Position numbers and translations under genes: made by a program. A stretch of 64,000 nucleotides of DNA from Escherichia coli 042 (GTDB taxonomy: Bacteria; Pseudomonadota; Gammaproteobacteria; Enterobacterales; Enterobacteriaceae): the NCBI RefSeq assembly GCF_000027125.1, contig NC_017626.1. One strand, given 5' to 3'. The notes below the pieces were generated by a model that worked only from the letters and a program-made list of their open reading frames with translations, had not been told where the DNA came from and did not search any database. Positions 23,887 through 37,040 of this stretch are shown one piece after another. Position 1 is the first letter of the stretch. Each line of letters begins with the position of its first letter.

Positions 23887-24816
23887 ATGCGAGTAACCAC
23901 CCAACAAACCTACGTCTCGATGACGCAAAGTTTTAATAATCTCTCCGGCGATCTGGCGCATGTGGTCGAGCAGATGGCAACCGGCAAGGAAATTTTGCAG
24001 CCGTCGGATGACCCGATCGCCGCCACGCGCATCACCCAGTTGAACCGCCAACAGTCGGCGATTGAGCAGTATCAGAGCAATATCGACTCCGCGTCGGCGG
24101 GGTTAAGTCAGCAGGAATCAATCCTTGATGGCGTCAACAACAGCCTGCTGGCGGTGCGCGACGACCTGCTGGAAGCGGCGAATGGCACCAATACCGCCGA
24201 TTCGCTCGCAAGTCTCGGGCAGGATATTGAGTCGCTCACCGAATCAATGGTCGTGGCGCTGAACTATCAGGACGAAGACGGGCATTACGTGTTTGGCGGT
24301 ACCATCAACGATCAGCCGCCGATTGTGGCGGTGGACGATGACGGCGATGGCGTGACCGACAGCTACAGCTATCAGGGCAACAGCGACCACCGCCAGACCA
24401 CGGTGTCGAACGGCGTGGAAGTGGATACCAACGTGGCGGTGAGCGATTTCTTCGGCAGCAATTTAGATGTGCTCAACACACTGAATACCCTGTCGCAGGA
24501 GTTGCAAGACCCAAACGTTGACCCGGCCGATCCGCAGGTGCAGAGCGATATTCAGAACGCCGTTGATGTGGTGGACACCGCCTCGGATAACCTCAACGCC
24601 TCGATTGCGTCGCTCGGCGAGACGCAGAACACCATGTCGATGTTGAGCGATGCGCAGACCGATATCTCTACCTCTAATGATGAGCTGATTGGTTCATTAC
24701 AGGATCTCGATTACGGCCCGGCGTCGATCACCTTTACCGGACTGGAAGTAGCAATGGAAGCTACCCTCAAGACTTACTCGAAAGTGAGTGAGTTGAATTT
24801 GTTCAGCGTTCTCTAA
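23887..24816 (+). CDS. lfgL: FlgL homolog (hook-associated protein 3)
   Basis: Start at ATG 23887 (MRVTTQQTYVSMTQ) with GGGAG ribosome-binding site; flagellin-like N-terminus (GKEILQPSDDPIAATRI); track start 23863 overlaps lfgK. Confidence 0.82.
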   Translation: MRVTTQQTYVSMTQSFNNLSGDLAHVVEQMATGKEILQPSDDPIAATRITQLNRQQSAIEQYQSNIDSASAGLSQQESILDGVNNSLLAVRDDLLEAANGTNTADSLASLGQDIESLTESMVVALNYQDEDGHYVFGGTINDQPPIVAVDDDGDGVTDSYSYQGNSDHRQTTVSNGVEVDTNVAVSDFFGSNLDVLNTLNTLSQELQDPNVDPADPQVQSDIQNAVDVVDTASDNLNASIASLGETQNTMSMLSDAQTDISTSNDELIGSLQDLDYGPASITFTGLEVAMEATLKTYSKVSELNLFSVL

Positions 24817-24832
24817 CTCTTTCAGGAACAGT

Positions 24833-25810
24833 ATGCAGGTCGGACTTACATCTTCGTCACTCGCCACCGGCGGCGCGCATAGCGCTGCGGTATCGTCGTC
24901 AACCGTTGCGCCCACTCAGGCGGTGCGGCAAAAACTCCCGGCGACGGCGAGTGAATATCCGGCCTCGCCGCTGATTACCACTCGCCCGCAGCGTTACAGC
25001 GTGCAGCTTAACGACCAGCTCACCACGTTGCAGCAGGCGGATCACTATCTCGGGCAACTGGAGCAGCAGTTGCTCGATTATCGTCACAGCCAGCGCAAAG
25101 GCGGGCAGGCGCAGAGTTCGGCGCTGATGCAGATGCTGGACAAACGCACCGCGCTTTCCGGCGGTGCGGTGGACCGCCAGTTGCAGCCAGTGTTGCAGGG
25201 GGAAGCGCGGGTGACTTTTCACTCGCCGGATCTGGCGAATCTGGTACACAATCCCACGCCGGGAACGCGCATGTTCAGCGTCTCTGACGGGCGGCAGACT
25301 CAGCTTTCGGCGGTGATGCTGTCTGAGGATGACAGCGCTGGGCAGTACCAGACGCGGCTGACCAACGCCCTGCGCCGCGTGGGCGTGCAGATGCATCAAA
25401 ACGCCGATGGTATAAGTTTCTCCACCACTGAAAAACAGTGGCCCAACATTGAAAGCACCCTAAGCGTGCGCACCGATGGTGATAAATCAGCGTTTATGCC
25501 ACTAAAAACCTTTGCCGAACCGTCGCAGGCGGACCGCTTAGTGCAAAGCCTGCAACAGGGCGGAGCGGGGATTTCTCAGACGTTAGAAAGCATTAATCAG
25601 CAGCGTGTGCAGATGGCGGTACAGCAGGAAAAGGCGCGGCAGTTGATCGACGGCATGTCGCGCTTCCCGCAAACGGAAAGCGCCGTGCAGGCGTCGGAAA
25701 ATCTCGGCGGCGTGCTGGATAGCGCCAATCATAACTATCAGGTTTTATTGCAGGCGGTGAACGGTCAGGCGCGAATTTCCAGCCAGACGGTGAGGAGTTT
25801 ATTGGGTTAG
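24833..25810 (+). CDS. lafW: Lateral-flagellar protein of uncertain role
   Basis: 325-aa Gln/Ser-rich ORF after lfgL; symbol assigned by position in the Flag-2 gene order, not by motif. Confidence 0.55.
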   Translation: MQVGLTSSSLATGGAHSAAVSSSTVAPTQAVRQKLPATASEYPASPLITTRPQRYSVQLNDQLTTLQQADHYLGQLEQQLLDYRHSQRKGGQAQSSALMQMLDKRTALSGGAVDRQLQPVLQGEARVTFHSPDLANLVHNPTPGTRMFSVSDGRQTQLSAVMLSEDDSAGQYQTRLTNALRRVGVQMHQNADGISFSTTEKQWPNIESTLSVRTDGDKSAFMPLKTFAEPSQADRLVQSLQQGGAGISQTLESINQQRVQMAVQQEKARQLIDGMSRFPQTESAVQASENLGGVLDSANHNYQVLLQAVNGQARISSQTVRSLLG

Positions 25811-25828
25811 GGTTATTGTCATTGTTGC

Positions 25829-25874
25829 TTTTATAGCTATTAAGCTATAGTTTATCTATAGCATAAAAGCTATG
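25829..25874 (+). promoter_or_regulatory. Palindrome-rich putative operator/promoter of the toxin-antitoxin pair
   Basis: Repeated TATAGC/GCTATA and CTATAG half-sites (TTTTATAGCTATTAAGCTATAGTTTATCTATAGCATAAAAGCTAT) just upstream of the toxin gene. Confidence 0.45.
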
Positions 25875-25882
25875 AGGGACCG

Positions 25883-26227
25883 ATGATGTGGGACGTCGAG
25901 ACAACGGAGACTTTCGACAACTGGTTTGATGCCCAGACTGTTGCGCTGAAAGAAGATTTACTTGCTGCAATGCTGATTCTTGCTGAGTATGGCCCACAGT
26001 TGGGCAGACCCTTTGCGGATACGGTTAATGATTCACAGTTTTCAAATATGAAAGAATTACGCGTCCAACATCAGGGAAACCCGGTACGTGCTTTTTTTGC
26101 TTTCGATCCTGCGCGCCGTGGCATTGTATTATGTGCGGGTGATAAAACGGGGTTAAATGAGAAAAAGTTTTATCGCGATATGATCAAGCTCGCTGATTCT
26201 GAATACCGTAAGCATCTGAAAAAGTAA
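25883..26227 (+). CDS. HigB/RelE-superfamily toxin-like protein (Gp49-like)
   Basis: 114-aa ORF resembling the HigB/Gp49 killer family (ELRVQHQGNPVRAFFAFDPARRGIVLCAGDK), paired with a downstream HTH protein. Confidence 0.7.
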   Translation: MMWDVETTETFDNWFDAQTVALKEDLLAAMLILAEYGPQLGRPFADTVNDSQFSNMKELRVQHQGNPVRAFFAFDPARRGIVLCAGDKTGLNEKKFYRDMIKLADSEYRKHLKK

Positions 26228-26236
26228 GGAACGATA

Positions 26237-26536
26237 ATGGCTACTCTAAAAGAACTGATGGCAAAGCAAAGCCCTGAAAGCCAGGCGCGTATTGCGGCAA
26301 AAGTTGAGGAAATGCGCCAGACCATCGCCTTGCATCAGCTGAGAGAAGAACTCAATATTTCGCAAACGGAAATGGCGGCAGCGATGGGCATTAAGCAACC
26401 GACTCTTGCAAAAATGGAGCAGGCAGATAACGATCCTCGGTTGTCTACGCTAAAACGCTATGTTGCGGCTTTAGGTGGGGAATTGAGTATCGACGTTAAA
26501 CTGCCGAATGGTAAGAGAATTGCATTTCAGATTTAA
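26237..26536 (+). CDS. HigA-like HTH (XRE-family) antitoxin
   Basis: 99-aa ORF with HTH (LNISQTEMAAAMGIKQPTLAKME), 10 bp downstream of the toxin gene. Confidence 0.7.
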   Translation: MATLKELMAKQSPESQARIAAKVEEMRQTIALHQLREELNISQTEMAAAMGIKQPTLAKMEQADNDPRLSTLKRYVAALGGELSIDVKLPNGKRIAFQI

Positions 26537-26593
26537 TTTTGGGGTGCATTTTATGAACCGGATTAGATAAAACGGTATCTAATCCGGTAAACA

Positions 26594-27487
26594 TCAGCAT
26601 TTCTGCACAGTATTTAACAACTTCTCTAAATTCTGATACATCGCGCTATTAATATCGCTATTCTGCCAGCTATCCACATTAAAAGTTAATTGCCAGCTAC
26701 CGTTGCACTGGTTGCGCAGAACAATATCACTCTCCAGTCGGTTACGAACATATTTATAATAGGTTGTCATTGTCATATTATGCGCTGACAATAAATTATC
26801 GAGTTTGTCTTTTCCTGGTGCGAGGGTTTGTGACAGTAACGGTACGGAATTATTTTCCTTTCCAGAACTAAGATGAAATATTTTTATTCTTGGACTGTTA
26901 ATTGACTCTTTTACCAGTTGCGGGGCGTCAGGTGTACTTTTCAAGTGTGAATACCCCACGGTTGAGCCAACCAATATAACAGCTGCGGCCAACGCTAACC
27001 CCATCAGTCCTTTATGTTTTTTTCTAACAGGCACATACGGTGTTGTCGAAGATATCTCTTCTGGGGCTGTATCCTGTATCTGGTCGGTAATAATCAGCGC
27101 TTCTGCAGGCGATGACTCCGGCAAAGACACATACTCTTTATTGCATAAGTAACCTTTCTTCGGAATTGTTTTAATAATGTTCTGTTGTTTGCCATCATCG
27201 TCGATAGCAACGCGCAACGCATGGATCGCCGTCGGCAGGCTGTTTCCGCCGACAATACGGTTCTTCCATACTTCGGCACATAAATAAGATCGCGATAAAA
27301 CCACATCGGCATTTTTTGCTAATGTTTCCAGCAAAATAAAATGGTATTCGCCGAGACGACGTGTTTCACCCGTTTCGCAATGTATTAAGGCATTAAGCGA
27401 CGGGTCCATCCGCCAGTTGTTGATAATAATACTCATAGTTGAGTTTACCTTAGCAAGGGATAAATGTTTCCTGATAGTGCTTTGCAT
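26594..27487 (-). CDS. lafZ: ToxR/CadC-like membrane-anchored transcriptional regulator
   Basis: N-terminal winged-helix OmpR-type segment (LRVAIDDDGKQQNIIKTIPKKGY), one TM helix (GLMGLALAAAVILVGSTVGY), periplasmic C-terminus; start may be internal ATG 27436. Confidence 0.7.
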   Translation of the reverse strand: MQSTIRKHLSLAKVNSTMSIIINNWRMDPSLNALIHCETGETRRLGEYHFILLETLAKNADVVLSRSYLCAEVWKNRIVGGNSLPTAIHALRVAIDDDGKQQNIIKTIPKKGYLCNKEYVSLPESSPAEALIITDQIQDTAPEEISSTTPYVPVRKKHKGLMGLALAAAVILVGSTVGYSHLKSTPDAPQLVKESINSPRIKIFHLSSGKENNSVPLLSQTLAPGKDKLDNLLSAHNMTMTTYYKYVRNRLESDIVLRNQCNGSWQLTFNVDSWQNSDINSAMYQNLEKLLNTVQKC

Positions 27488-27849
27488 AAAGCACAGTCTT
27501 ATACGTCCCTGAGAAGATGATTTTTCTGCGTGATAATTAATATTTTATGGTGATAAGATTATTCTTAATCACTATATAGCGTGGAAATGTAACGAAATGA
27601 CAGGACAGGTACAATAGCCAAATGTGTACTATTTGCAACGCAATGTAAATTTTGGCATCAGTACATTGAGAACAAAACGCGATAATTGATGACAATCTTA
27701 ACTATATCAAGCGTTTGATAAAGACATATTTTGATACCTGGCCATGTGGCAGATATTGCTAATAATCTTTTTATCTGAATTTAAACTCTGCTTTTTTTAG
27801 CTAAAAGTGGCATCGGATAATACGTGGCGAAAAAATTATAACGGCGATT

Positions 27850-36336: not shown

Positions 36337-36630
36337 ATGCATCGAATTCTTGCGGAAAAATCGGTCAATATCACTGAGTTACGTAAAAACCCAGCTAAAT
36401 ACTTTATTGATCAACCAGTTGCGGTTCTTTCTAATAATCGCCCCGCAGGATATCTCTTAAGTGCCAGCGCATTCGAAGCGTTAATGGACATGCTTGCTGA
36501 ACAAGAGGAGAAAAAGCCTATAAAGGCGCGCTTCCGTCCAAGTGCTGCAAGATTAGAGGAAATTACACGCCGAGCTGAAAAATATCTTAATGATATGACG
36601 GATGATGATTTCAATGACTTTAAGGAATAA
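36337..36630 (+). CDS. yafN: YafN antitoxin
   Basis: 97-aa Phd/YefM-like antitoxin located between dinB and yafO. Confidence 0.85.
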   Translation: MHRILAEKSVNITELRKNPAKYFIDQPVAVLSNNRPAGYLLSASAFEALMDMLAEQEEKKPIKARFRPSAARLEEITRRAEKYLNDMTDDDFNDFKE

Positions 36631-36632
36631 GG

Positions 36633-37031
36633 ATGCGGGTATTCAAAACAAAACTCATTCGCCTGCAACTTACAGCAGAGGAACTTGAAGCGTTAACGGC
36701 GGATTTTATTTCCTATAAGCGTGACGGTGTTTTGCCAGATATATTTGGTCGCGATGCACTCTACGACGACTCGTTTACCTGGCCATTAATCAAATTTGAG
36801 CGAGTTGCTCATATTCATCTGGCAAATTAGAATAATCCATTTCCGCCACAGTTGCGCCAATTCAGCAGAACGAATGACGAAGCGCATTTGGTATATTGTC
36901 AGGGTGCGTTTGATGAGCAAGCATGGTTGCTCATTGCCATTCTGAAACCTGAACCTCATAAACTGGCTCGAGATAACAACCAAATGCATAAAATTGGGAA
37001 AATGGCAGAAGCGTTTCGCATGCGTTTTTGA
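36633..37031 (+). pseudogene. yafO: YafO toxin gene interrupted by an in-frame TAG
   Basis: ORF stops at TAG 36828-36830 after 65 codons; same frame stays open for 66 more codons (NNPFPPQLRQFSRTNDEAHLVYCQGAF...MRF) to TGA 37029-37031, 10 bp before yafP. Confidence 0.75.
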
Positions 37032-37040
37032 ATTTATATT

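Follow-up and report, generated by a model that had tools for sequence, protein, structure and literature searches.

A toxin-antitoxin gene pair in the lafW–lafZ spacer

The window analyzed here is a 64,000-nucleotide stretch of Escherichia coli 042 (contig NC_017626.1 of assembly GCF_000027125.1) that contains a Flag-2 lateral flagellar locus, in which the genes lafW and lafZ are separated by a toxin-antitoxin (TA) cassette of 781 bp (25811–26591, + strand). The cassette makes up the entire lafW–lafZ spacer and stands in place of the 54-bp spacer, containing a repetitive extragenic palindromic (REP) element, of empty loci. The toxin gene (25886–26227, + strand) encodes a 113-residue protein of the Gp49 family (PF05973), a HigB2-type member of the RelE/ParE superfamily. 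It is followed by the antitoxin gene (26237–26536, + strand), encoding a 99-residue XRE-type helix-turn-helix (HTH) protein of the HigA2/HigA3 kind. In RefSeq the two products are labelled ‘type II toxin-antitoxin system RelE/ParE family toxin’ and ‘helix-turn-helix domain-containing protein’. The pair is a real, intact-looking TA module of an ordinary kind, and its occurrence at this position has been reported before.

The left flank is lafW (24833–25810, + strand, 325 residues), which lies downstream of lfgK and lfgL and whose stop codon abuts the cassette; LafW is labelled in RefSeq as hypothetical or as a flagellar hook-associated protein. On the right, the convergent lafZ (26594–27487, − strand) encodes a CadC/ToxR-like winged-HTH regulator and is followed by lafA. 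With the RefSeq start, LafZ has 280 residues (26594–27436), and its N-terminus gives a CadC-like NCBIfam match (E = 1.6e-8). The order of the flanking genes agrees with lafWZA of Flag-2 cluster 3 (PMC6993521).

A sequence-only reading of this DNA had placed two open reading frames (ORFs) on the + strand, both of which are present and intact, but its toxin length of 114 residues and its gap of 10 bp between the genes need correction. The first ATG, at 25883, would give 114 residues, and the second, at 25886, gives 113; the second is the start used by RefSeq and is conserved in the Klebsiella and Citrobacter orthologues. The intergenic gap (26228–26236) is 9 nt. A Shine-Dalgarno sequence, GAGGGA, precedes the toxin gene at 25874–25879.

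The toxin matches the Pfam Gp49 model (E = 1.4e-20, model positions 1–89 of 90) and PHROG 3445, annotated as ‘toxin’ (E = 1.3e-22). PF05973 is also the precomputed annotation of all 120 toxin homologues among the matches listed. No other Pfam family matched the toxin at E ≤ 0.001, and the NCBIfam scan returned no model for either the toxin or LafW. An AlphaFold2 model of the toxin, built on an alignment of 77 diverse homologues, has a predicted local distance difference test score (pLDDT) of 96.5 and a predicted template modelling score (pTM) of 0.90. When the model was compared with the PDB by Foldseek, the top 14 matches were all HigB, HigB2, RelE or ParE toxins at a probability of 1.00. The best match is Streptococcus pneumoniae HigB (6AF4/6AF3), with template modelling (TM) scores of up to 0.69 (0.68 for 6AF4), and the second best is Vibrio cholerae HigB2 (5JAA); the top matches further include RelE from an archaeon and from E. 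coli (1WMI, 4FXE), Mycobacterium tuberculosis RelE1, and ParE2. The near-invariant residues of the family, including E57, R59, R68, R77, K87 and Y96, are all kept in the toxin. The Gp49 match and the structural matches of the predicted model support a RelE/BECR fold, and the RelE/HigB fold proposed in the sequence-only reading has profile support to this extent. The canonical HigB families (PF05015 HigB-like and PF09907 HigB) were considered and rejected: only Gp49 matched, and the term ‘HigB-like’ is true of the gene order and fold only.

The antitoxin matches Pfam HTH_3 (E = 2e-12), and its sequence matches in the PDB include M. tuberculosis HigA3 (6LTY, 1.8e-8) and HigA2 (7EWC, 2.1e-8), as well as S. 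pneumoniae HigA (6AF3_B), whose cognate toxin gave the best structural match to the present toxin. Among 80 loci from 80 species, an antitoxin homologue directly follows the toxin homologue in every case, which indicates a toxin-first type II module of the Gp49/HigBA2 kind. The description of the locus as a HigB/HigA-like, toxin-first pair is thus borne out by the Gp49 match, the RelE/HigB fold of the predicted model and the XRE-type HTH partner downstream. Ribosome-dependent mRNA degradation and a toxin-first gene order are known for the gp49 family (PMC11980606).

Putative operators, promoter and 3′ hairpin

Two palindromes of the form ATAGC-N6-GCTAT lie upstream of the toxin gene. The putative operator O1 (25833–25848; ATAGC-TATTAA-GCTAT) overlaps with its right half the −10 element of a putative sigma-70 promoter. 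O2 (25858–25873; ATAGC-ATAAAA-GCTAT) follows O1 at a distance of 25 bp and falls between the −10 element and the Shine-Dalgarno sequence. The promoter (25825–25851, + strand), as read from the sequence, would consist of a −35 element TTGCTT (25825–25830) and a −10 element TATAGT (25846–25851) separated by a 15-nt spacer. Exact matches to ATAGC-N6-GCTAT in the 64-kb window are confined to these two sites, with 0.06 expected by chance. Matches with one mismatch occur elsewhere in the window at chance level, none of them at Flag-2 promoters.

The arrangement is conserved in the orthologous loci. Although the surrounding DNA cannot be aligned, the segment from a TTG(C/A) −35-like element through the start codon is conserved; the −10 element, TATAGT in the window, reads TATAAT in most orthologues. 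Across genera the operator half-sites are invariant, whereas the 6-bp spacers vary. A survey of 83 loci, covering up to 90 bp upstream of the toxin gene, found one or two perfect ATAxy-N6-y′x′TAT palindromes in most of them, the two variable bases changing symmetrically. Across these loci the half-site type co-varies with the predicted recognition helix of the antitoxin. ATAGC/GCTAT goes with the helix VKQPT.AK.EQ in the present window and the enterobacterial group, ATAGA/TCTAT with I(K/S)QPS..AIE(N/Q) in Acinetobacter, Psychrobacter and Photobacterium, and ATAGG/CCTAT with VKQPTIAGMEK in Halomonas; ATAAC/GTTAT and ATAAG/CTTAT accompany other helices in other groups. Their uniqueness in the window, the conservation across genera and the joint change of half-site and helix together suggest that the two palindromes are very probably the operators of the antitoxin. 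The sequence-only reading had seen a cluster of TATAGC/CTATAG palindromes that looked like an operator, and this surmise is now refined to two 16-bp sites. The co-change of half-site and helix across the family could explain how paralogous modules remain insulated from one another.

Orthologues in Photorhabdus, Xenorhabdus and Mangrovibacter (loci L026, L028, L031–L034, L036 and L039–L041) combine a VKQPSVARMEQ helix with hybrid, imperfect operators in front of the toxin gene, such as ATAGT-N6-GTTAT and ATAAC-N6-GCTAT. These hybrids may represent an intermediate in a change of operator specificity.

At the other end of the cassette, a hairpin with a perfect 13-bp stem and a 6-nt loop (26557–26588) lies between the convergent stop codons of the antitoxin gene and lafZ. 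It has z scores of −5.0 (+ strand) and −5.6 (− strand), and neither strand has a T-run after it. The hairpin, ACCGGATTAGATA-AAACGG-TATCTAATCCGGT, occupies the place of the REP element of the empty and relic alleles described below, GCCGGATAAGACGCG...CGCATCCGGC (for example at 1912–1945 of locus L001), and the two elements have CCGGAT...ATCCGG ends in common. It is a possible transcript end or terminator. A terminator-like site called by the scanner at 26521–26548 overlaps the antitoxin stop codon, and no RNA family was found by Rfam in 24800–27600 at E ≤ 1.

These features bear on whether the cassette could be a regulatory add-on, in which Flag-2 expression would be modulated either by the HTH protein or by convergent transcription into lafZ combined with read-through out of lafW. 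There is no terminator-like element between the lafW stop codon (25810) and the toxin start, so that an lfgKL–lafW transcript could read into higBA; furthermore, the cassette is convergent with lafZ, with just the hairpin between them, and it displaces the REP element of empty loci. However, the exact operator motif is found nowhere else in the window, and most Flag-2 loci are without the pair. The orthologous pairs reside in unrelated contexts: LafW, LafZ, LfgL or LafA was found within 8 kb of the pair in none of the 80 species loci, and the closest orthologues outside E. coli (83–85% amino acid identity), in Klebsiella and Citrobacter, occupy another conserved site, between a DUF1198 gene (yicN-like) and a gene for an MFS transporter. 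A regulatory role in Flag-2 expression is therefore very improbable. A HigA regulon inside Flag-2 was also considered and rejected, there being no further operator sites above chance.

Allelic states and probable spread of the cassette

The lafW–lafZ spacer was compared across 5426 complete E. coli genomes, of which ∼1273 contain a lafW–lafZ junction and were taken as Flag-2-positive. The limits of the cassette were set from an alignment of full, relic and empty alleles together with blastn boundaries. The intact cassette is present in 71 of the ∼1273 genomes (5.6%), always on the chromosome, in single copy, at the same site and with at least 99% identity. The remaining ∼1150 genomes with neither the cassette nor a relic have the empty allele, whose 54-bp spacer is essentially one REP element. 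The pair is thus far from universal at this position, and its insertion between lafW and lafZ, inferred earlier from the one sequence, is seen as an insertion polymorphism of the spacer.

A third state, found in 47 genomes, is a 303-bp spacer that holds a decayed, related pair followed by the REP element; E. coli SWHEFF_68, O157:H16 and XH990 are examples (loci L002, at 1906–2208, L003 and L095). What remains of the pair is approximately the last 25 codons of the toxin gene, in degenerate form, and the first 30 antitoxin codons (MATLKQLMDKQSPES...), under a pseudogene annotation. Deletion has removed the promoter together with most of the toxin gene, and the antitoxin gene is truncated, while lafW and lafZ are intact. 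The left junction GGTTATTG, directly after the lafW stop codon, is common to the relic and the intact cassette; the two have just 85% identity over their best 55 bp. Relic alleles diverge among themselves by up to ∼8%, a divergence that points to an old insertion in neutral decay.

One relic allele lies in a Flag-2 segment, flgG to fliL, on NZ_CP104632.1, a record labelled plasmid pHNAH212872-2 (100,861 bp; locus L096). This segment is either plasmid-captured chromosomal DNA or an assembly artefact.

The distribution of the three states argues on the whole against an addiction module that stabilizes the locus, a reading under which deletion of Flag-2 would remove the antitoxin gene, residual toxin would kill the cell and the cluster would thereby be protected. 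Frequent loss of Flag-2 by en-bloc deletion (PMC6993521) gives such a module something to protect against. Plasmid stabilization is also known in the family, from HigBA2 on an unstable Acinetobacter plasmid (PMC5906591), and 1982 plasmid records (1291 conjugative) carry homologues, with a best identity of 78%; phage homologues are rare. But ∼94% of Flag-2-positive E. coli genomes retain the locus without an intact pair, and in the 47 relic genomes the pair has decayed in place, the toxin gene being lost first, with the flagellar genes on either side still intact. The native plasmid pAB120, moreover, is stable after deletion of HigBA2 (PMC5906591). The window itself offers a further counterexample. 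Its lfgC (15970–16403) has a 2-bp insertion near 16014–16017 (GACGGCGCGCAAAC, as compared with GACG--GCGCAAAC in strain GN06156), which throws the gene out of frame after ∼15 codons, a frameshift already reported for E. coli 042 (PMC3032704). The Flag-2 system of the window is therefore probably non-functional, and the intact pair in this locus does not preserve Flag-2 function. Protection of the locus by addiction is unlikely on this evidence.

The base composition and the sequence of the intact cassette bear on its origin. Its G+C content is ∼0.44, against 0.55–0.60 in the neighbouring flagellar structural genes; that of lafZ is also low. The cassette differs by at most one single-nucleotide polymorphism in 781 bp across strains whose lafW genes differ by 4–7%, and it is found in three backgrounds. 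The first comprises the present window and EF5-18-41. In the second, comprising AST240 and O166:H15 JNE070796, identity to the window covers 25724–26808. The third is that of AR_0077, which is flanked much as in a relic-bearing strain and is identical to the window over ∼25798–26646. No terminal inverted or direct repeats and no target-site duplication were found flanking 25811–26591, and inside it there was no recombinase, transposase or integrase gene and, as judged by eye, no attC site. A transposon, insertion sequence or integron gene cassette was accordingly rejected, the cassette consisting of two ORFs only. Since mobility genes are absent and the copies in at least three diverged haplotypes are nearly identical, the cassette most likely passed recently from one E. 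coli lineage to another, with homologous recombination in the Flag-2 flanks as the route, as judged from these sequence comparisons. The GGTTATTG left junction, being present in relic alleles too, would provide usable homology.

Compared with GN06156, the window is 95.6% identical over 5525–17105 and 98.8% identical over 17113–47003, with the breakpoint at ∼17.1 kb, between lfgD and lfgE, and the lafW alleles of different strains diverge by 4–8%. Flag-2 is thus a mosaic formed by recombination, with a diversity that is unusually high for E. coli.

Defence genes typically show the kind of patchy distribution, with horizontal spread, that is seen for the cassette, and in anti-phage abortive infection, shut-off of host transcription by a phage or degradation of the antitoxin would free the RNase toxin and abort the infection. 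RelE/ParE-superfamily toxins have been discussed as defence toxins (PMC11980606). Among the PADLOC models, the toxin gave a match to the C-terminal domain of NsnC (E = 1.5e-7), and the antitoxin one to an HTH model (E = 8e-10). These PADLOC matches, however, reflect a shared domain and not a system, and no further defence genes adjoin the cassette, which makes a defence function decidedly unlikely. A known PADLOC defence system was likewise rejected: the matches to the NsnC C-terminus and to a generic HTH are at the domain level, and there was no full-length match.

A further proposal is that TA expression is coupled to lateral-flagella regulation in the lineages bearing the cassette, that the near-identical copies were maintained by positive selection, for example for phage defence, or both. 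Coupling is conceivable from read-through out of lafW combined with convergence on lafZ across the hairpin that replaces the REP element, and the near-identity of the copies across three or more diverged Flag-2 haplotypes makes positive selection over drift conceivable. As a whole this proposal appears highly improbable.

Taken together, there is strong reason to regard the cassette as a chromosomal type II TA operon of the Gp49 (PF05973)/HigBA2 kind that is variable cargo in variable region 2 (VR2) of the E. coli Flag-2 locus. By family precedent, HigA dimers, and more strongly HigB–HigA complexes, would bind both ATAGC-N6-GCTAT operators and repress the overlapping promoter. Free HigB would act as a ribosome-dependent mRNA endonuclease and arrest growth upon depletion of the labile antitoxin. 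The best view of the cassette is that of a passenger, selfish or near-neutral, and not of a component of the flagellar system.

Several points weigh against this account. The toxin had no match in PDB sequence searches, either as a single sequence or as a profile of the 77 diverse homologues, so that the fold assignment leans on Pfam and the predicted structure. The proposed cassette promoter has a short spacer of 15 nt and went uncalled by the promoter scanner, which accepts only spacers of 16–18 nt. Toxicity, neutralization, RNase activity and operator binding are attributed to the pair by analogy with family members. The recombination route is traced in three backgrounds only, and in AR_0077 the left tract of identity is short, the last differences lying 14–28 bp before the cassette. 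A site-specific insertion mechanism was considered for this short tract but not adopted, since all alleles show little variation over the final 60 bp of lafW and since the left junction found in relic alleles too offers usable homology.

Previous reports and related systems

The lafW–lafZ spacer is the variable region VR2 of Flag-2, a published hotspot for cargo genes (De Maayer et al. 2020, PMC6993521), and the presence of the pair at this position has been noted in E. coli 042 (Archer et al. 2011, PMC3032704). The view of the sequence-only reading that a TA module inside a flagellar cluster is unexpected therefore does not hold. VR2 rows of a published table list ‘ParE’ (113 residues) and ‘HipB1’ (99 residues) in 46 Escherichia strains (PMC6993521 Table S3). 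The published element and the pair described here agree in position, in both lengths, in genus and in variable presence, with no biological difference between them, and are almost certainly the same element. The cassette has the properties of VR2 cargo in lying between lafW and lafZ, being variably present, deviating in G+C content and being listed in Table S3. Since the pair was reported in PMC3032704 and PMC6993521 and is annotated in RefSeq, the finding is already known.

The published names are appropriate at the superfamily level only, and the family-level placement that they imply is not supported. For ParE, a gyrase poison, the toxin has no match to ParE_toxin (PF05016), and ParE2 structures rank below HigB and RelE among its structural matches. 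For HipB, the antitoxin scores 26.1 bits against NF007271, whose cut-off is 79; there is no hipA, and the neighbouring gene encodes a Gp49 toxin.

The significance of the present analysis is small and lies mostly in tidying the annotation. The new details are modest, namely the placement in the HigBA2/Gp49 family, a concrete operator and the three allelic states of VR2. They describe a TA cassette without mobility genes that has spread among diverged Flag-2 haplotypes with no sign of protecting the locus.

Two other regions of the window are also of note. A second type II TA pair, yafN–yafO (36337–37034), lies ∼10 kb downstream of the cassette, beyond lafU and dinB. yafN is intact (97 residues), but yafO, which encodes the toxin, is interrupted by a stop at codon 66, likewise annotated by RefSeq in GN06156; this pair is an antitoxin left with an inactivated toxin. 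The segment 9758–13924, between lfiJ and lfgN, contains a cytidylyltransferase-like ORF (134 residues), an 847-residue ORF (a glycosyltransferase in RefSeq) and a 322-residue ORF, and corresponds to the published flagellin-glycosylation cargo region VR1.

Among known TA systems, tad-ata (Paracoccus pAMI2, phage N15 and SXT; Dziewit et al. 2007, as described in PMC5906591) shares with the present pair, as far as that description goes, a Gp49-family toxin, a toxin-first order, an HTH antitoxin and a role in stabilization; the same source gives its identity to the HigBA2 group as ∼20%. Canonical HigBA (Proteus vulgaris Rts1; E. coli K-12 ygjN–ygjM; PF05015/PF09907) and V. cholerae HigBA2 (PF06296) are likewise toxin-first, with a RelE fold and an XRE-type HTH antitoxin, but belong to other Pfam families and show 12–17% identity in structural alignments. 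M. tuberculosis HigBA2 (Rv2022c–Rv2021c) and HigBA3 (Rv3182–Rv3183) supply the best solved relatives of the antitoxin, both at E ∼2e-8, and their toxins fall into the same GP49 group (PMC5906591). They are nevertheless distant from the present pair and come from another phylum, and the present toxin has no sequence match to any PDB entry.

The closest characterized member is HigBA2 of Acinetobacter baumannii pAB120, for which RNase activity of the toxin, neutralization by HigA2 and stabilization of an unstable plasmid have been demonstrated (Armalyte et al. 2018, PMC5906591). The operon is repressed by HigA2 itself, and more strongly by the complex (PMC5906591). Like the pair described here, it is a toxin-first operon encoding a GP49-domain toxin and an XRE-type HTH antitoxin. 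The Acinetobacter homologues are 54–57% identical in the toxin and ∼53% identical in the antitoxin, and their loci carry an ATAxy-N6-y′x′TAT palindrome ∼30 bp upstream of the toxin gene, which is the same design as that in the window. The A. baumannii system differs in being plasmid-borne with one ATAGA/TCTAT operator, whereas the present pair is chromosomal with two ATAGC/GCTAT operators, and its recognition helix reads IKQPSLSAIEN in place of the IKQPTLAKMEQ found here.

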